From a virus, in the UHGV virus genome UHGV-1440165: a stretch of DNA of 64,000 bases. One strand, written 5' to 3'. Every line of letters begins with the position of its first letter. The stretch's first letter is position 1. The position numbers and the translations under genes were made by a program. The notes under the pieces are model-generated. The model did not search any database, was not told where the DNA came from, and was given only the letters and a program-made list of their open reading frames with translations. Shown here one piece after another: positions 2,599 through 18,090 of the stretch.

Positions 2599-3326
2599 TA
2601 TTCTGTTTCTCCTTCGTTTTCGTCCAGATCGAATTGGGTGTTGCCGAAGTCTTGATCTGAATTGTCTTCGGCCTGCGCTGTTACCGTATTCTTACCTTGT
2701 GACATGTATTGAAGTATGCCTTTCGCGATCTTTTTGTTCGATTCGGCGGCTCGGGCGTTCTCTACCTTCTCCCGCTCCTTCTGTCTTTGGGCATCCTTCT
2801 TGTTTTCGAAGTTTCCGATGCGCTCGCGGAAGTCCATGCCAATCCCAGTGGCATCAACAAAGATCTCTTGTTGGAAGTCAGGATCATCGGCCAGGCCTGC
2901 AAATCCACCTGCCTCTTCAAAGGAACGCAGCTTGATGTATGTGTGCTCTTCTTCTATGTTCAGCTTGCGGGCAAATGAGCGGTCAGCGCACATGGTCACC
3001 CAGGAGAAGAAGTTGATCTTGCCTTTGCGCCCGACGTGACCAACATCGAAGGTGTGGAGATAGCGAAGGATGTTGACTACAGCTTCAGACACCATGTCAT
3101 CGCGGTACGGATAATCGCGGTAATTGTAGCGGGTGCTCATCTTGCTGATGATGCGCTGGACCTGGACTGCAACGTAGTTGGGGATCTTGGGGAGCGGTGT
3201 GCCTTCAGTTAATGCCTTCTTGCGAGCGGGGATCCAATCACGAAGGATACTGATGACACGCTCGTTATCTTCGTCCGTAAAATATTTGACGACATTCTCG
3301 CCACGATCAACATAATTCATACCCAT
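2598..3326 (-). CDS. gp55-like late-transcription sigma factor (putative)
   Basis: 242 aa, ATG start; N-terminal half resembles T4 gp55 in pattern and sits next to the gp47/gp46-like genes as in T4; acidic C-terminal tail. Confidence 0.45.
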   Translation of the reverse strand: MGMNYVDRGENVVKYFTDEDNERVISILRDWIPARKKALTEGTPLPKIPNYVAVQVQRIISKMSTRYNYRDYPYRDDMVSEAVVNILRYLHTFDVGHVGRKGKINFFSWVTMCADRSFARKLNIEEEHTYIKLRSFEEAGGFAGLADDPDFQQEIFVDATGIGMDFRERIGNFENKKDAQRQKEREKVENARAAESNKKIAKGILQYMSQGKNTVTAQAEDNSDQDFGNTQFDLDENEGETE

Positions 3327-10211: not shown

Positions 10212-10661
10212 TTAGTACCGACTATCACTGACCGTCCGGTACTTCACACCCTTGAACTGCTTGGCAACCTTGACGAACTCCATCGCAGGCATGTCCACTT
10301 TGTAGACCTTGATGCGCTGACGGTCATCCATGTTCAGAGCAGCCACATAGCGGTGGGAGCCGTCGACCACATAGTTATCAGAAGACACCCAAACCCGACC
10401 CATGGGCTTCTTGTTTCTGATGTTCTTCATGATCTTCCAGACCTTCATCTTGTTGATTTCGTTCTGGGTGAGACGGAGCGATTTGATAGGAACCTGGCCA
10501 GCATCGATAGTGATGCCGAGTTCCTCCAGGTAGTCATGGAAGGCATCCTGTTTGTCATCGTCGATTTGTGGCATAGAAGAACGCGAAAGCCCGAGGTTTC
10601 CAACAGGAATCCTCAGGCCGTTGATAATGTTCAACCAGTCTATGAAGGAAGACATGAACAT
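10212..10661 (-). CDS. ParB-like nuclease domain protein (putative)
   Basis: Contains VVDGSHRYVAAL, resembling the ParB/sulfiredoxin-fold DGxHR motif; ATG at 10661 with GAGGTGA RBS (track start is GTG at 10670). Confidence 0.4.
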   Translation of the reverse strand: MFMSSFIDWLNIINGLRIPVGNLGLSRSSMPQIDDDKQDAFHDYLEELGITIDAGQVPIKSLRLTQNEINKMKVWKIMKNIRNKKPMGRVWVSSDNYVVDGSHRYVAALNMDDRQRIKVYKVDMPAMEFVKVAKQFKGVKYRTVSDSRY

Positions 10662-10804
10662 GAGATTCACCTCGGGATATGAATTATCCCTTAGTTAGTC
10701 GTGAAATGTCTTGGCGAGAAACCTCCCGACATATTCACAAAAGGCAATGATCACTAAACCCAATCCGCAACCAATAAGCCAACCCCAAAATTCAATGTCC
10801 ACCA

Positions 10805-11092
10805 TCACACCTCGTCTTCTTCAGGTCCACCGTCAATCAGGATACGAGCGGTGTCGAAAGTTTCCCCGCCCGTGTTCAGCAGCTTGGTCAGATCGTCAAG
10901 ATATCGGACCGTGCCAAGATCAGATGACCGCGTTATAAATTCCAGCATACCATACAGGGCTGATTTGAATCGGCTGTTGTCGATATCGTTCTTGATTTCC
11001 ATCAGGCGCAAGATGTTCTCTGACTGAGTATGGCCAACACACGCCTTGTCTCTGATCATCTCCTTGATAGAACTTCTCTCTGTTGGTGTCAT
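10805..11092 (-). CDS. Hypothetical protein
   Basis: 95 aa ORF, ATG start. Confidence 0.4.
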   Translation of the reverse strand: MTPTERSSIKEMIRDKACVGHTQSENILRLMEIKNDIDNSRFKSALYGMLEFITRSSDLGTVRYLDDLTKLLNTGGETFDTARILIDGGPEEDEV

Positions 11093-11466
11093 AACGAACC
11101 ACCCCCGACAGAGATCAAGAACTCTTCTTCAATGGTCGTGACCGGGCGGCGGTTGCGGGTTTCGATCATGAAGCCCCAGCCGCCGTCGGCGACGTTGCCA
11201 AAGGTCTTGACGCCAAAGGTCTTCTTCCCGTTGGAGCAGGCATAGAAGTCCAGGATGAACGGGCTACCCTGATTGTCGATCCCACGGTTTACGCCGTCCG
11301 CTACACAGCGCTCAATCATCTTCCCGTTCTTATACAGAACGAGGTCTTGGCCATACGCCTTGAAAGCATAAACGCCGTTGGTAGACACTCCGGTGATGAC
11401 AGGAGGAGCGGAAACAGCAGAGAAGGAAGCGCCCAGCAGGGCAACGGCGAGGATTAACTTTTTCAT
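11089..11466 (-). CDS. Secreted protein (signal peptide)
   Basis: ATG at 11466; MKKLILAVALLGASFSAVSA signal peptide; two Cys in mature part. Confidence 0.55.
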   Translation of the reverse strand: MKKLILAVALLGASFSAVSAPPVITGVSTNGVYAFKAYGQDLVLYKNGKMIERCVADGVNRGIDNQGSPFILDFYACSNGKKTFGVKTFGNVADGGWGFMIETRNRRPVTTIEEEFLISVGGGSL

Positions 11467-11490
11467 GATATAGTCTCTTGGTTTCAAATG

Positions 11491-11512
11491 GGCGGGGTAT
11501 GATTACCCCGCC
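11491..11512 (-). other. GC-rich hairpin (GGCGGGGTA-loop-TACCCCGCC) of a recurring intergenic element
   Basis: Perfect 9-bp stem; followed on the minus strand by CATTTGAAACC and the RBS/start of the 11466 gene. Confidence 0.5.
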
Positions 11513-11518
11513 GTGGGT

Positions 11519-12025
11519 TTATAGGGTAACAAGTGATACGGTAAAAACCATCGTCCCGTCAGTTGCCATTTTTCTTGAAACTGGTATGACGCGAGGCTGG
11601 CAGAATATCCATTCTTTCTCCATGGACGCCAAGTCCAGCATATCCATTTCTGATTCATCGCCTTTGTTCACAAATTTTTCTAGAGAACCATAGACATTAA
11701 GCCCCTCCGGGAGTCCGTTTCGATGTTTGTAACATATGCGGGCGACAGCTCTGGTTCCATACGATTTAGAAAATTGTTTGGCCACATGCTTCAGTTCACT
11801 GAAGCTAAGACAAGAATCCCATGTCTGAAACATGTCTCCTCGTTCAAACATCATCTCCAAACGCGCAACGTCCTCTTTAGGCAACCCGCGATAAAGTGTG
11901 GTCATCTGCGGTTCGCGTAATTCTCGCACCAGACCACGGATGGCAGGGGAAACAGTGCCAGGGCGCATGATGTGGGACTTATCATGGACGAGGTAAAATA
12001 AATCTTGAATTTGTTGATCGGTCAT
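11519..12025 (-). CDS. Hypothetical protein; possible ADP-ribosyltransferase-like
   Basis: 168 aa; ATG with GAAGGA RBS; candidate R / S-x-S / E-x-E triad (LYRG, DSCLSFS, EKE) is suggestive only. Confidence 0.35.
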   Translation of the reverse strand: MTDQQIQDLFYLVHDKSHIMRPGTVSPAIRGLVRELREPQMTTLYRGLPKEDVARLEMMFERGDMFQTWDSCLSFSELKHVAKQFSKSYGTRAVARICYKHRNGLPEGLNVYGSLEKFVNKGDESEMDMLDLASMEKEWIFCQPRVIPVSRKMATDGTMVFTVSLVTL

Positions 12026-12084
12026 GATGTATTTCCTTCATTTCAAATAGGCGGGGTAATCATACCCCACCCTAAGTTATAGAA

Positions 12085-12324
12085 TTAACTGATGTGCTTC
12101 AGAAGAGCGAAGAGGATCGCGGCCTTGGCTTTCACCTTTCCGACGACGCCTGTTTCGACATCGACTTCTTCGGCAACCCAATCTTTTCCCTTCTTGCTGA
12201 TGATAACATCGCGGCGCTGGGCATATACTTCTTTGGTCGCATACACACGGCGGAACCCTTTAGCGCGGAGCAAGCCCCAATTGCGATCAATCTCTACTGA
12301 AGTTTCGACCATTTTGTTCTTCAT
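12085..12324 (-). CDS. Hypothetical small basic protein
   Basis: 79 aa, ATG start, downstream of an early-type promoter. Confidence 0.4.
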   Translation of the reverse strand: MKNKMVETSVEIDRNWGLLRAKGFRRVYATKEVYAQRRDVIISKKGKDWVAEEVDVETGVVGKVKAKAAILFALLKHIS

Positions 12325-12375: not shown

Positions 12376-12405
12376 ATAATAGGACATTCTTTAGAGGAAG
12401 TAAAC
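12376..12405 (-). promoter_or_regulatory. Sigma70-type early promoter (-35 GTTTAC, 18-nt spacer, -10 TATTAT)
   Basis: Minus-strand GTTTAC-N18-TATTAT immediately after a terminator hairpin; resembles the T4 early-promoter -35 consensus. Confidence 0.5.
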
Positions 12406-12415
12406 CCCTAAAAGT

Positions 12416-12440
12416 AAAAATCCCCAACAAACGTTGGGGA
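12416..12440 (-). terminator. Intrinsic terminator (TCCCCAAC-loop-GTTGGGGA + T-run)
   Basis: 8-bp GC stem followed on the minus strand by TTTTTA; lies downstream of the 12458..12682 gene. Confidence 0.6.
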
Positions 12441-12457
12441 TTTAATAAAAGTTATGC

Positions 12458-12682
12458 CTATTTAATTTCTCGGCTTGAATTTTCCAGTTCTAATTTTCTT
12501 ATAGCGGAAATTCTACCTTCATCAGTTGCGGGAAACTCCCAAACAGCACGACGTCCGTTGTGAGTATCACAACTTGCCAGCCAGAAGAAATTAGAGGGAT
12601 CTTTAAACAAGACCAATTTAGGGTTAGCAATATTGTTCAGGCAAAATGGGGCGAGGTCAACAACGCGTGATACAGCAGACAT
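12458..12682 (-). CDS. Hypothetical small protein
   Basis: 74 aa ORF, ATG start. Confidence 0.4.
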   Translation of the reverse strand: MSAVSRVVDLAPFCLNNIANPKLVLFKDPSNFFWLASCDTHNGRRAVWEFPATDEGRISAIRKLELENSSREIK

Positions 12683-12731: not shown

Positions 12732-12761
12732 ATAATACGTATTTGCCTTATAGAAGTAAAC
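12732..12761 (-). promoter_or_regulatory. Sigma70-type early promoter (second copy of the GTTTAC-N18-TATTAT cassette)
   Basis: Near-identical copy of the 12376..12405 promoter. Confidence 0.5.
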
Positions 12762-12771
12762 CCCTAAAAGT

Positions 12772-12796
12772 AAAAATCCCCAACGTTTGTTGGGGA
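12772..12796 (-). terminator. Intrinsic terminator (second copy, loop inverted)
   Basis: Same TCCCCAAC/GTTGGGGA stem as at 12416..12440 with the loop sequence reverse-complemented; T-run on the minus strand; downstream of the ACP-like gene. Confidence 0.6.
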
Positions 12797-12802
12797 CTTC
12801 TG

Positions 12803-13126
12803 TTATTTGCGCAGGGCAACCACGAATTCAGCGAGTTCACCCATGGTCGGGTCATCGCCTTTACTGCCCAGCCAGCCGTCGTCTATTTCGACCTGAAACT
12901 CTTCTTCTAGTTCCATTACGATTTCGATAGCATCCAGTTCATCGCCGCCGAGGTCTTTCTTGGTGCGGAGGCCAGCCAGTTTGTCCAGGGCGTCTTCGTT
13001 TTGAGATGCCACGTCGTCCAGCAGTTTGCGCTTGTCATCGTCGCGCCACAGATCCATATTCAGATTCTCTGTAGCGTACTGAGCCAGGTGTCGCATCACC
13101 TCAACATATGTCGGTTTACTGCTCAT
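12803..13126 (-). CDS. Acyl carrier protein-like protein lacking the phosphopantetheine-attachment serine
   Basis: 107 aa; DLGGDELDAIEIVMELEEEFQVEIDD closely matches the ACP helix-II region [20 protein letters not shown], but the DSL serine codon is GAA (Glu); ATG with GGAGA RBS. Confidence 0.6.
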   Translation of the reverse strand: MSSKPTYVEVMRHLAQYATENLNMDLWRDDDKRKLLDDVASQNEDALDKLAGLRTKKDLGGDELDAIEIVMELEEEFQVEIDDGWLGSKGDDPTMGELAEFVVALRK

Positions 13127-13144
13127 GTCACTTCTCCCAAAGAA

Positions 13145-13162
13145 GGGCGGGTTGCCCCGCCC
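13145..13162 (-). other. GC-rich hairpin (GGGCGGG-loop-CCCGCCC) between vWA and ACP-like genes
   Basis: 7-bp perfect stem immediately after the vWA stop; terminator-like but weak T-run. Confidence 0.4.
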
Positions 13163-13168
13163 GTTGGA

Positions 13169-15370
13169 TTAGATTTTGATCTCTTTCTCTGCCAGTTCGG
13201 CAGTGACCTTGTACTTCACGCCATCCACTTCAACTTCCATGGTTGACTCTTCCAGGTCGAGGTCGGTGAACCAGCCATGGCCAGCAACGATACCATACAC
13301 CACTTTAGACAGCGTCTTGTTCAGGGCGCGGACTTCAGTGATGGCCGCCTTGGCAGCAGCGTCGATCCAGTTTTCGATCAGCTGTTTCTGTACGGCTTCA
13401 GGCACAGCAGTAATAGCCGGGGACTTCACGAATGCGTCGTATTCTTTCAGTGCATTGGCGATGAACATATCACCCGCATTGAGAGCCTTTTTATCAGCAA
13501 TCTTCTTCTGTACCGCAGCGATGGACGGCAGAGAAGACGCCCCGGCGATCTTAACGTTCAGCTCACGGCTCATGTAGACGTCCGTGGAGTCCTTCAGCTC
13601 GGTCTTCGGTGAGAAGCCATAATCGCGGATACCAACACTAGACAGGTATTCTGCGGCCGCAGCGCCGTACTGAATAGCCAGACCTTTGGCATTACCCTTA
13701 CCAACCAGGGCGTCGCGATAGAACTTCAGTACCTTCTGCTTGCCTTTCAGGGCTTCCAGGCGAACGTTGTCGGCAAAGAACTGTGCAGCACTGATGTTCT
13801 TGACCATCGCACGGTTGACCAGCGGTACGCTTTCCAGGTTCAGAATGAACACTTCCGGACCAACGAACACGTGGACGCCCATTTCGATCAACTTCTGCAC
13901 AACTTCGATATCAGCCTTGAACGGCAGGGTCTTCACATTGATGATGCCGTCTTTGACGATGGTGTAGTTGCGCCACTGGAATGTGTCCAATTCTTCGGGT
14001 AGACCGAACTTCTTCTGAGCGAATTCGGGCACCGCCACAGTTCCATGCTGGATTGTACGCACACTGATGTTCGGGCGCTCAGAGTTATAGACCAGGTCGC
14101 TGATTGAGATCACGCCCAGATCGTTAGCAGGTTCAAACGACGGTGTCCACTCTTCGTGCTCAGCCAGCTTGAGAGCGAGGGCTTTACGCTCTTCTTTGGA
14201 CTTGGCGTTCGCGATTTCTTCCGCCAGCTTGTCTTCGGTATCATCGGCTTTCTGCACAGTACCGCGACCAATGCTCTTGTAGGAGAACATCGGGTGCTTG
14301 GTGGCAACAGACACGCCAGCTTCGGCCAGGTACGTCAGCACATCAACGACAGTGGTCGCATCTTCAGCCGGAACCATATTGTAGTCGATACCGTCCACGC
14401 CGCGCAGCTGATCATCAACGATGGCCTGGGTCAGATCAACTTTGATGTTGGAGTAGTCCTGCTTGGTGAAGCAGTTGCTGTACTGTTTGATGAAGCGGAC
14501 GTCGCCCGTTTTCTTCAGCGCAGCCCACACCAGGTCGGCGTCCATGATGTGTACGCCGTAGAACGCCAGCACGTATGCTGCCTGGATGTCCGTCAGCGCA
14601 TCAAGCTGGTCGATCATGTTAGGGTTGACGACCCACAGCTTCGTGACGCTCTCAGGGATGCTCACGTGGCCGATAGGATGGTCTTCATCCGGCTGTACCG
14701 CCAGCACGGTTGCTACGCCGTTTTCAACGTAGATGGCGTGAGTGTACACCACAGGAACGTCAACACGAACCTTCGGCACCGAGGACTTCAACACGTTTTC
14801 CAGCTCAGTCTGATATTCAGTCTGTCCTTCGGCGAACACGTGAGTCGCGCCGGAACGCTCGGACATCTGGGCCAGGAGTTCGCGGTTACAGTACCAGCCG
14901 TATTCGATAAAGGTGATGTTATCGAAAACAAATGGCAAGGTTTCGGCGACGGCCAGGATTTCATTGGAGCGCCAGCAGTTGTCATAACCATCGGTCATGA
15001 ACGCCAGGTTGTTGACGTAGCCGGGTTTCTTCAGGCTACGCGCAGTATCTACCGCGAGACCCAGGGGTTCGACGAAGCCAGTGCAACCGGATGGTTGCAG
15101 GAAGCGGTCGATCAGTTTGTTCAGCTCGCTCAGGTCAGACGCAGCACTGACCTGGCGGCCAGCGAACACAGTACCAAAGTCGCCACGGGATGAGAAGTAC
15201 AGGAGGCTCACTGTGTCTTCCGGTTTCACCAGGGAAGGCAGGTTCTCCTTCAGGTGCTTACGGACTTCAGGGAGCGCCCGGTACATGGAACCGGAAATGT
15301 CCACAACGATTACATGGTTGGACGGGGCAGCAGTCGCAACCGCATTCTTAAACTCCAGGGATTCAATCAT
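13169..15370 (-). CDS. von Willebrand factor A (vWA) domain protein
   Basis: MIDAS-type motif VVDISGSM near the N-terminus and later TDGYDN; about 733 aa from ATG at 15370 (MIESLEF...). Track start 15433 overlaps a small upstream ORF. Confidence 0.65.
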   Translation of the reverse strand: MIESLEFKNAVATAAPSNHVIVVDISGSMYRALPEVRKHLKENLPSLVKPEDTVSLLYFSSRGDFGTVFAGRQVSAASDLSELNKLIDRFLQPSGCTGFVEPLGLAVDTARSLKKPGYVNNLAFMTDGYDNCWRSNEILAVAETLPFVFDNITFIEYGWYCNRELLAQMSERSGATHVFAEGQTEYQTELENVLKSSVPKVRVDVPVVYTHAIYVENGVATVLAVQPDEDHPIGHVSIPESVTKLWVVNPNMIDQLDALTDIQAAYVLAFYGVHIMDADLVWAALKKTGDVRFIKQYSNCFTKQDYSNIKVDLTQAIVDDQLRGVDGIDYNMVPAEDATTVVDVLTYLAEAGVSVATKHPMFSYKSIGRGTVQKADDTEDKLAEEIANAKSKEERKALALKLAEHEEWTPSFEPANDLGVISISDLVYNSERPNISVRTIQHGTVAVPEFAQKKFGLPEELDTFQWRNYTIVKDGIINVKTLPFKADIEVVQKLIEMGVHVFVGPEVFILNLESVPLVNRAMVKNISAAQFFADNVRLEALKGKQKVLKFYRDALVGKGNAKGLAIQYGAAAAEYLSSVGIRDYGFSPKTELKDSTDVYMSRELNVKIAGASSLPSIAAVQKKIADKKALNAGDMFIANALKEYDAFVKSPAITAVPEAVQKQLIENWIDAAAKAAITEVRALNKTLSKVVYGIVAGHGWFTDLDLEESTMEVEVDGVKYKVTAELAEKEIKI

Positions 15371-15533
15371 CGTTATTGCCTTCTTCAGGGTTGTCATCGG
15401 CCTCACCTTCCGGATTGACCAGCATGTGTTCAACGAATTCGCGATTCAGCTCAATCTGGCTCATCAGCGCATCCGTCGGAGTAAAGCGGCGGTCGAGGTT
15501 ATCGACACCCGCACGTTTAAATGGTTTGGACAT
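15363..15533 (-). CDS. Small hypothetical ORF (56 aa) between NAMPT-like and vWA genes
   Basis: ATG at 15533 with GAGG RBS; its TGA stop overlaps the vWA start (ATGATTGA); acidic C-terminus. Not in ORF track (under 60 aa). Confidence 0.4.
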   Translation of the reverse strand: MSKPFKRAGVDNLDRRFTPTDALMSQIELNREFVEHMLVNPEGEADDNPEEGNNDD

Positions 15534-15574: not shown

Positions 15575-17239
15575 TTAGATTTGTGAGGCCAGTTCTGCCA
15601 CCAGAGGAGCAGCACGAACACGCGCATCTTCCAGAGTCTGAGTGTTGAAGAACTTGCCATCACGGTACACCAGTTGGTGTTGGTTGTCGGCGTCTTGCAC
15701 CTGATCAAAGGTGATGCCGTCAACCAACACTAGTTTACCCTGAGAGTCTTTAATGACTTTAAGGAAACCACGCGCAGACTTTTTAGTCCCGCCTTTGTCG
15801 GTCTTCGGCTCTTTGAAGATCTCGCGGAATTCACCGTTCACCTTACCAGCCGTCGCTTTCACTGCCGTTCCAGTACTGTCACGGGTGTTCATCTGGTAGG
15901 TGTAGGAACCAATACCGAAGACCACGTTAATGGAAGCGAAGTTCCGGCCAGCCAGACGACCAAAGATCTGGTCTTCACGTGCCAATGTGATAGAGTCACC
16001 GTAGATCAGACCGATGTGATCGTCCAACAGGAAGTGGCCAGTCTCAGTTTGAGTACCGCCAAAGATCTCCCACAGGCGCTGAATAGAGCCGACTGCTTCA
16101 GAACGGCTGATGATATTACTGTCGTCTGCCATCAGAGAGTTGATCGTACCTTCGCCTGTGATCAGGTGATAGGTGTTCGTCTCTTCGATGTGGATGACTT
16201 CGGTGCTGCTGGACACGCCGCTGATGTTCAGCATAGCGCGGTCTTTGAACCCCTCGATGCGGTAGCCGCCGACGATGTGAACTGGGTCGCCAGAGTCAGG
16301 GCGGATCACGACTTTGCCGTTGCGTGCCATGATAATGTCTTTCAGGCGAGGGAGATAGTCGTCGATGACCTGCCAATAGTCCCACGCATCCGACACAATG
16401 CTGACGATGCCATCAGGATACACGTCCTGCACCAGGCGACGGAAGGTTTCGAATTCTCCATTCTTCGTACCCATGCACATCACGGCGTGTTCGGTGGCTG
16501 CAACGGAGCCAGCAACGACATAGTCTTCATCGATATCCGCGCCGTAATACTCTTCAACGAAGTCCAGGGCAGGGTTGGTGTCAGTGCCTTTGAAGAACAC
16601 CAGATGGCCAGAACCGGAAGACGCCGCGTCATGCCATCCGCTCATACCACGGAAGGAGAAGTCGTGGCCTTGGTAATCGATGAACCAATGGTCCGGTGAC
16701 ACGCCTGTGGCGATAGCGGCTTTCACCATCAGTGCCTTGTAATGCAGGGCGATGGTGGCGTTCGTCATGGGCTTCCAGATCTCAGAGCTGAACACAGTCT
16801 CCAGATAGTTGGTCAGCCAGTAGAACTCCGGCAAGGTGTTGAACATCACATACACCGGAACGCCATACGGGCACATGGTGCCTTCGGGTAGAGCACGGAC
16901 TTCGATAGGCAGATAACCGAGGTCATGCAGGGCTTCGATATGCTCTGTGCCAACACGACCTGGACCCAGTACTTTGTTCATGCGACGGGCATACTTCTTC
17001 AACACCTTGGCCTTCGGGCGCTGGAAGAACGCTTCGTCAAACAGTTCGTGGAACCAGGTCATGAAACCCTGGATGCCCCAGACCACCACGCCGTTCTTCG
17101 GCAGGTGAGAGTTGAATAATTTGTTGGAACGCGGAGTCCCGTTGGAGAACACCAGCTCACTACCTTCAGGGAACTGATAGATGTGCCCTGATTTGTAGAA
17201 GTCGATTGCATGAATTGGGTCTAAGTGGCGCATGCTCAT
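15575..17239 (-). CDS. nadV: Nicotinamide phosphoribosyltransferase-family protein (NadV/NAMPT-like)
   Basis: 554 aa; NAMPT-type N-terminus with the DFYKSGH motif; ATG start overlaps the stop of the upstream Prs-like gene by 4 nt. Confidence 0.8.
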   Translation of the reverse strand: MSMRHLDPIHAIDFYKSGHIYQFPEGSELVFSNGTPRSNKLFNSHLPKNGVVVWGIQGFMTWFHELFDEAFFQRPKAKVLKKYARRMNKVLGPGRVGTEHIEALHDLGYLPIEVRALPEGTMCPYGVPVYVMFNTLPEFYWLTNYLETVFSSEIWKPMTNATIALHYKALMVKAAIATGVSPDHWFIDYQGHDFSFRGMSGWHDAASSGSGHLVFFKGTDTNPALDFVEEYYGADIDEDYVVAGSVAATEHAVMCMGTKNGEFETFRRLVQDVYPDGIVSIVSDAWDYWQVIDDYLPRLKDIIMARNGKVVIRPDSGDPVHIVGGYRIEGFKDRAMLNISGVSSSTEVIHIEETNTYHLITGEGTINSLMADDSNIISRSEAVGSIQRLWEIFGGTQTETGHFLLDDHIGLIYGDSITLAREDQIFGRLAGRNFASINVVFGIGSYTYQMNTRDSTGTAVKATAGKVNGEFREIFKEPKTDKGGTKKSARGFLKVIKDSQGKLVLVDGITFDQVQDADNQHQLVYRDGKFFNTQTLEDARVRAAPLVAELASQI

Positions 17240-18090
17240 TTTACACGTCCTGTATTTTCAGTTTTGAAAGGAAGACCGTCGGCGGTGATGTTCTCCCACC
17301 AGACAGTGTCGGCATACACAGCATCGTAGATCCCGTCGAAAACAGAGAGACCTTTGCTGAAGATGCCATGGGTAACGAAGAGCGTCATGTGCTTAGGCTT
17401 GTGCTTCTGAAGCTCTTTACCCAGCTCAACAAACGTGCGCCCACCGTCGCAGATATCATCAACCACAACCAGATAGCGGTCTTTGATCAGTTCAGGGTTT
17501 GTAATACTCACCCCAATGATTTCACCAGTCTTGGTGTCACGGTTCTTGTGTCCGTAGACAACAGGAACGCCATCCAATGACAGGCTGAGGGTTTCGGTCT
17601 TCTTCGCCGCGCCGCCGTCAGGGGCTACCAGCACAGCATTGTTCCCACGGATGAACCAGCCCAGATACTGGCGCACGATGTGATCTTGTGGGACCACATG
17701 GACGTTGTTGATCAGGGAAGACACAACATGGCTGTGAGGGTCTTTGATCGCCACGCGGTCAAAGTTCATGTTGTTGATGAACTCAGCCGCCCACTTCACG
17801 GACAGAGGCTCGCCGAAGTCGCAATGGCGGTCCTGGCGAGCATACGGGAAGTAAGGGATATACGCATGGAAGGTAGTCAGACGGTCCACGTTACCCAGGC
17901 CGCGCACGGCGTTTACCAGAAGCGCCAGCTCAATGAAGTCGGCTGATGATTTGATGTGAGCATCAATCACCACGTTCTGGACGTGACCGACAGGGATGCC
18001 AGCCTTTTGGATCTTGATATGTTCCTCACCACCTGGGAAGGTGAAGTGCTTGTAGAACACATCTTGGTCGTTCAATTTCAAACGAAACAT
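17236..18090 (-). CDS. Ribose-phosphate pyrophosphokinase-family protein (Prs-like)
   Basis: 284 aa; type I phosphoribosyltransferase/PRPP-binding motif VVVDDICDGGRT; ATG start with GAGG RBS. Confidence 0.75.
   Translation of the reverse strand: MFRLKLNDQDVFYKHFTFPGGEEHIKIQKAGIPVGHVQNVVIDAHIKSSADFIELALLVNAVRGLGNVDRLTTFHAYIPYFPYARQDRHCDFGEPLSVKWAAEFINNMNFDRVAIKDPHSHVVSSLINNVHVVPQDHIVRQYLGWFIRGNNAVLVAPDGGAAKKTETLSLSLDGVPVVYGHKNRDTKTGEIIGVSITNPELIKDRYLVVVDDICDGGRTFVELGKELQKHKPKHMTLFVTHGIFSKGLSVFDGIYDAVYADTVWWENITADGLPFKTENTGRVK

Follow-up and report, generated by a model that had tools for sequence, protein, structure and literature searches.

The window analysed here is a 64,000-nucleotide stretch of the virus genome UHGV-1440165 and derives from an Ackermannviridae phage; the region described below shares 88-94% DNA identity with pSal-SNUABM-02, vB_EcoM-ZQ1, MK-13, ChubbyThor and others. 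The minus strand carries, in order, an ACP-like gene, a 74-aa ORF, a 79-aa ORF, a 168-aa ORF that is a candidate ADP-ribosyltransferase (ART) gene, a 125-aa ORF, small ORFs and a spanin gene. AAGGAAA provides a ribosome-binding site a few bases 5' of the ART start codon, and no earlier in-frame start exists upstream. The features surrounding this gene are as follows.

12418 to 12443, minus strand: strong intrinsic-terminator-like hairpin, an 11 bp stem followed by TTTTTACTTTT, immediately 5' of the promoter-like site
12376 to 12405, minus strand: sigma-70-type promoter-like site, GTTTACTT-N16-TATTAT, 5' of the 79-aa gene
12085 to 12324, minus strand: 79-aa ORF, probably co-transcribed upstream of ART
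12050 to 12072, minus strand: hairpin copy A, GGGTGGGGTATGATTACCCCGCC then TATTTGAAAT and AAGGAAA, separating the 79-aa gene from the ART start
11519 to 12025, minus strand: 168-aa ORF with an ATG start, the candidate ModB-like ART with R-S-E motifs
11491 to 11512, minus strand: hairpin copy B, GGCGGGGTAATCATACCCCGCC then CATTTGAAACC, between the ART stop and the 125-aa ORF
ATG at 11466, minus strand: 125-aa ORF, the next gene after ART, with a signal-peptide-like N-terminus, MKKLILAVALLGASFSAVSA

Comparison of the window with Cba120, PhiSH19 and SKML-39 revealed that the promoter hexamers are invariant in all four phages despite two different spacer sequences, suggesting a functional sigma-70-type promoter, and the site at 12405-12376 is the probable promoter of a unit made up of the 79-aa gene and ART. 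The 79-aa ORF is 99-100% conserved in phages with either of two ART alleles and in phages that lack ART, and it is therefore no dedicated partner of the enzyme. Judging by its N-terminus, the product of the 125-aa ORF is possibly a secreted protein or lipoprotein.

Both hairpin copies consist of the palindrome GGCGGGGTA-loop-TACCCCGCC, then T or C and ATTTGAAA, and the loops of copies A and B are mutual reverse complements (TGAT, ATCA). Where 0.08 occurrences of the string GGGGTANNNNTACCCC would be expected in the 64 kb, there are exactly two, and they flank the start and stop of the ART gene. Copy A is stable and has no proper U-tract, so transcription would be expected to read through it; from its position upstream of ART it could attenuate transcription into the gene.

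We then compared this arrangement with related phages. About 53 Kuttervirus-type records encode the ART protein at 95-98% identity, among them Cba120 orf140/gp110 (97.6% identical). By tblastn the total came to about 78 records, of which about 67 are Kuttervirus-type and 11 are Erwinia jumbo phages with an identity of 28-29%, whereas the surrounding locus matched 280 records. The locus itself (10212-12324) is a mosaic, with ART-flanking genes that are 94-99% identical to those of the Agtrevirus SKML-39 as opposed to 39-85% identical to those of the Kuttervirus Cba120, where the 125-aa ORF is absent. SKML-39 lacks ART although its flanking genes are 99% identical, and a single hairpin marks the exact junction. 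PhiSH19-type phages encode an ART allele only 54% identical to that of the window beside a 79-aa protein that is 100% identical, and the DNA from the 79-aa stop codon through the ART ATG is also identical. Together, these observations establish ART as an accessory, exchangeable cassette bounded by two hairpin copies, a structure that is new in the present analysis, and a modulatory or arms-race role therefore fits the gene better than that of a core transcription switch.

The diverged PhiSH19 allele (NC_019530, locus L007, 2501-3013) is unannotated in RefSeq, where its 3' end runs into an annotated CDS (locus 2961-3311), and the orthologue in vB_EcoM-ZQ1 is unannotated too. Further upstream in the window, a 47-nt terminator-plus-promoter repeat (hairpin, TTTTTACTTTT, GGGGTTTACTT) is found on the minus strand at 12397-12443 and at 12753-12799. 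These copies flank the 74-aa ORF (12458-12682), which has no counterpart at the locus in Cba120, SKML-39 or PhiSH19, and the ORF with its repeats looks like a second repeat-bounded small-gene cassette, which calls to mind the shuffling of promoter-early stem-loops (PeSL) in T4-type phages. At 12803-15433 on the same strand, the ACP-like gene (107 aa, PP-binding) adjoins that of a 742-aa protein bearing a vWA domain at its N-terminus, a pair conserved across Ackermannviridae.

The earlier note had proposed an ART on the basis of an R / S-x-S / E-x-E arrangement in the 168-aa ORF, which is indeed present as LYRG at residues 44-47 (R46), DSCLSFS at 70-76 (S74, S76) and EKE at 136-138 (E136, E138). 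The note called this observation weak and motif-only, rightly so, as the loose pattern R...Sx[ST]...ExE arose in 13.6% of shuffles of the protein and occurs in 13 of the window's 167 stop-to-stop segments that reach 100 aa or more; the motif as first written, taken alone, is weak evidence for an ART. A fuller form, [YFW]RG...Sx[ST]...ExE[WVIL], appeared in 0.08% of shuffles, and within the window it is confined to the 168-aa ORF.

To place the ORF in a sequence family we relied on profile methods. PHROG 832, named 'RNA polymerase ADP-ribosylase', matches residues 2-159 with E = 1.1e-14 through profile positions 1270-1425 of 1480. The ORF matched nothing in Pfam or NCBIfam; T4 ModA and ModB likewise lack matches in these libraries, so the blank result counts for little. 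Searches of PDB sequences with the protein or with A1, a shallow alignment of 10 close homologues, were insignificant (E only about 1), and a word-indexed protein search recovered nine close clusters only. Exhaustively searching 1.84 billion cluster representatives with a profile yielded 59 proteins at E <= 1e-3, most of them small and among them the ModB-like representative P0056. Fifty-one small ones, of about 160-220 aa, were aligned with the window ORF to give A2, an alignment of 52 sequences. Weak Pfam matches among the 52 A2 members were to ADPrib_exo_Tox (10/52), DRAT (9/52) and ART (5/52), and two homologues carry a precomputed assignment to PF26816. Searching IMG/VR for related loci with A1 retrieved three isolate genomes only.

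Two larger proteins from these searches have composite architectures. The metagenomic P0013 (763 aa) combines a family ART domain at residues 10-146 (E = 7.7e-10) with a topoisomerase IB part of bacterial type (Pfam Topoisom_I, 8e-21), and P0035 (959 aa) contains repeated ART domains together with a weak, sub-threshold WW match.

When the shallow 10-sequence alignment was compared with T4 ModA and ModB by hhalign, the probability was just 54-58%, which is suggestive; the addition of distant representatives, from 10 to 52 sequences, made the comparison decisive. The A2 profile matches T4 ModB full-length over 163 columns (probability 99.0%, E = 3.3e-18) and T4 ModA somewhat less strongly (97.8%, E = 1e-12), and a T4 ModB query directly matches many family members. 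T4 Alt gave a probability of 0.2-0.3%, such that homology to Alt is undetectable pairwise. The resemblance to T4 Alt/ModA/ModB-type enzymes suggested in the earlier note thus stands for ModB and ModA and falls for Alt. The alignment with ModB pairs LYRG with LYRG (R73), SFS with SFT and EKEWI with EQEWM; mutation of ModB R73 abolishes both ADP-ribosylation and RNAylation (PMC10468400). Conservation across the family follows the same residues: R46, G47, S74, E77, E136, E138 and W139 are invariant in the 10 close sequences, and in the 52 sequences of A2 the counts are 51/52 for R46, 52/52 for G47, 50/52 for S74, 52/52 for S/T76, 51/52 for E136 and 52/52 for E138. A family-specific N-terminal motif, H14-D15-K16-x-H18, is kept in 46-51 of the 52 members; just its Lys aligns in ModA/ModB, and the specificity of this ART may therefore differ from that of the T4 enzymes.

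Structure prediction led to the same family. AF2 modelled the ORF with a pLDDT of 80 and pTM of 0.74 from the 10-sequence alignment and with a pLDDT of 94 and pTM of 0.89 from the 52-sequence alignment, for which all five models reached at least 90, and both models have an identical topology and order of secondary-structure elements. R46 is predicted on a strand at 44-47 (L44-Y45-R46-G47, an aromatic-R-G context) and S74-x-S76 on a strand at 72-76 that is followed by a helix at 79-88, while E136-x-E138 (E136-K-E138-W) is placed where helix 124-136 meets strand 138-142; in the predicted fold, this layout of R46, S74/S76 and E136/E138 is canonical R-S-E. Fold searches of the PDB (Foldseek) and of BFVD used only the first, lower-confidence model (pLDDT 80). 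Foldseek returned 55 PDB matches at E <= 1e-3, and all 50 of the 50 listed are R-S-E ARTs, including HopU1 (7e-8), C3 exoenzymes, Tre1, ExoS/T, Plx2A, XopAI, Vis, Certhrax and CDTa. Apart from the orthologue, the top BFVD hits (E about 1e-10, TM about 0.7) were unnamed phage proteins and ADP-ribosylases of the ModA/ModB type from T4-like phages. The comparison with ART folds that the earlier note had proposed as a check thus returned an ART-like fold of the R-S-E clade.

These results bear directly on the explanation that the motif arose by chance in an unrelated or non-coding ORF, or that it marks a catalytically dead ART-like protein. The frequency of the loose pattern in shuffles and the silence of Pfam and NCBIfam would both be compatible with it; however, the ORF is conserved in the Kuttervirus-type records and the Erwinia jumbo phages, its catalytic residues are kept across 52 diverged sequences, and the evidence from homology and fold is strong, leaving this explanation extremely improbable and its chance-motif form refuted. 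Collectively, the profile, profile-profile and fold evidence upholds the ART reading, and we conclude, with a probability of roughly 0.78, that the ORF is a compact stand-alone R-S-E mono-ADP-ribosyltransferase of the T4 Mod family that is closest to ModB. That the window ORF encodes a competent ART is, in our estimation, highly probable. The Mod family is listed among the commonest viral ART families (Iyer et al., PMC9503650).

Given this identity, a catalytic route can be proposed by homology. NAD+ would be held by R46 on strand 1 and S74/S76 on strand 2, E138 of the E-x-E, at the junction of the ARTT loop and strand 5, would promote release of nicotinamide and formation of an oxocarbenium ion, and E136 would direct transfer of the ADP-ribose onto the side chain of an arginine in at least one host protein. 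Arginine would be the likely recipient, because the third motif has the E-x-E form characteristic of arginine-specific ARTs (PMC10468400). Unmodified host RNA polymerase would most likely start at the 12405-12376 promoter and transcribe the gene together with the 79-aa gene; early expression is plausible given the sigma-70-type promoter and the analogy to T4 modA/modB. Made before replication, the enzyme would act as a host-takeover or host-modulation factor. A literature search on Kuttervirus/Cba120 transcriptomics, studies of this ART, and expression or biochemistry of any orthologue found nothing specific.

The database record already names a target. Cba120 orf140 and many orthologues are labelled 'RNA polymerase ADP-ribosylase' in RefSeq and in several recent GenBank entries, having been hypothetical proteins in the original submissions; the ART has thus already been captured by homology-based annotation, and as such it is fairly ordinary and no new kind of system. 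The RefSeq label, taken over from the PHROG name, is over-specific for the evidence, because the closer T4 relative, ModB, is reported to target S1, EF-Tu, trigger factor and L2 and because the target is unreadable from sequence. Taken at face value, the label implies a ModA/Alt-like enzyme that specifically modifies R265 of the RNA polymerase alpha subunit and redirects transcription to phage promoters. The PHROG 832 name, the RefSeq label on orf140 and its many orthologues and the homology to ModA are consistent with such a function, as is a gap it would fill: according to the 2011 Cba120 paper, the ViI-like phages lack alt/modA homologues as well as MotA/AsiA and other known early regulators (PMC3184105). 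We nevertheless consider it unlikely, as ModB is the closer match (3e-18 versus 1e-12) and its reported targets do not include RNA polymerase, specificity for a target is not legible in the sequence, and ART is missing from many Ackermannviridae with the same locus (280 records versus about 78) and therefore cannot be the family's general early-transcription switch. Our confidence in any one particular target of the ART is low.

The earlier note had also linked the ORF to an NAD module elsewhere in the window, which comprises the following two genes.

17236 to 18090, minus strand: Prs-like gene, 284 aa, overlapping the start of the Nampt-like gene
15575 to 17239, minus strand: Nampt/NAPRTase-family gene, 554 aa, 3.5 kb upstream of ART on the same strand

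On this view the ART would be functionally coupled to the module, and the NAD+ consumed in host takeover would come from it. The proximity of the two genes on the ART strand speaks for coupling, and Salmonella phage Se-G has both the ART and the NAD genes. About 86 Ackermannviridae records contain the module with an identity of >= 90%. However, the distributions of ART and module proved independent: Prs-like and Nampt-like homologues are absent from the whole 157-kb genome of Cba120 although its near-identical ART is present, and Gloob and Ag3 carry the Nampt-like gene in the absence of ART. Moreover, a mono-ART uses one NAD+ per modified residue and frees no ADPR. The order of a Prs-like gene followed by a Nampt-like gene instead matches NARP1, in which Adps and Namat convert ADP-ribose and nicotinamide back into NAD+ and so defeat defences that deplete NAD+, and in which 97% of Adps-clade genes adjoin a Namat (bioRxiv 10.1101/2024.02.11.579819). 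By its gene order and pairing, the module looks like a NARP1 anti-defence operon. The proposed link between ART and module is therefore largely refuted by the independent distribution, and we regard it as very improbable.

The neighbourhood and the pattern of variation bear on a different account, in which the ART is a counter-defence or niche-specific effector that acts on a defence component or other non-core target, or that RNAylates with NAD-capped RNA, and serves no general takeover. Tre1, which modifies FtsZ, exemplifies an ART with a target outside core takeover. The cassette is accessory and is absent precisely at the hairpin in SKML-39, its alleles are 54% identical beside a 79-aa protein that is 100% identical, a pattern typical of arms-race genes, and it sits in a hypervariable region adjoining the NARP1-like anti-defence operon; ModB, the closest characterised relative, also RNAylates. 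Yet T4 modA and modB are likewise non-essential and variable and are not anti-defence genes, and we hold this account to be doubtful.

Returning to the reading of the ORF as a Mod-family enzyme closest to ModB, we tentatively suggest, as a possibility that falls short of an even chance, that the Kuttervirus ART represents a distinct compact Mod branch, one marked by the H-D-K-x-H motif and carried as a hairpin-bounded mobile cassette with diverged alleles, whose target may be a component of defence or translation, possibly modified via RNAylation, and not RNA polymerase. If this is true, the ViI-like phages would have in this ART their first identified host-modifying enzyme. The ViI-like (Ackermannviridae) phages are widely used candidates for biocontrol and therapy, and a ModB-like enzyme in a subset of them offers a concrete, testable host-modification factor. 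The two 54%-identical alleles, together with phages that lack ART at an otherwise identical locus, form a natural comparison set, and the product name 'RNA polymerase ADP-ribosylase' emerges from our analysis as over-specific.

Among characterised ARTs, bacterial R-S-E effectors and toxins (Certhrax, HopU1, C3 exoenzymes, Vis, Tre1, VIP2, ExoS/T) are 7-17% identical to the window protein; unlike these, the window ART is phage-encoded and intracellular and has no secretion, translocation or immunity partners. Alt (NP_049811, 682 aa) shares the R-S-E ART superfamily and PHROG 832 with the window ART; however, Alt is a 682-aa protein that is packaged in the capsid and injected, whereas the window ART is a 168-aa stand-alone domain that spans essentially the entire protein and carries no packaging or delivery domain. 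Neither the window nor the complete Cba120 genome contains an Alt homologue by phmmer, or a second ART or Mod-family paralogue. ModA (NP_049635, 200 aa) has the R-S-ExE motifs and falls into a similar size class, with the window ART 30-40 residues shorter than ModA/ModB; it is the weaker match of the two, and its specificity for R265 of RNA polymerase alpha is not transferable to the window ART. ModB, which is reported to target S1 and L2 and RNAylates with NAD-capped RNA (PMC10468400), and for which the T4 RefSeq note gives S1, EF-Tu and trigger factor, is the closest known system. The window ART is about 40 residues shorter than ModB (NP_049636, 207 aa), chiefly at the N-terminus and in the region before ExE, and identity over the hhalign alignment is about 17%; both are nonetheless small stand-alone R-S-ExE ARTs that share LYRG, SF[ST] and E-x-EW[IM], and each is encoded within a small-gene cluster of a T4-related myovirus.
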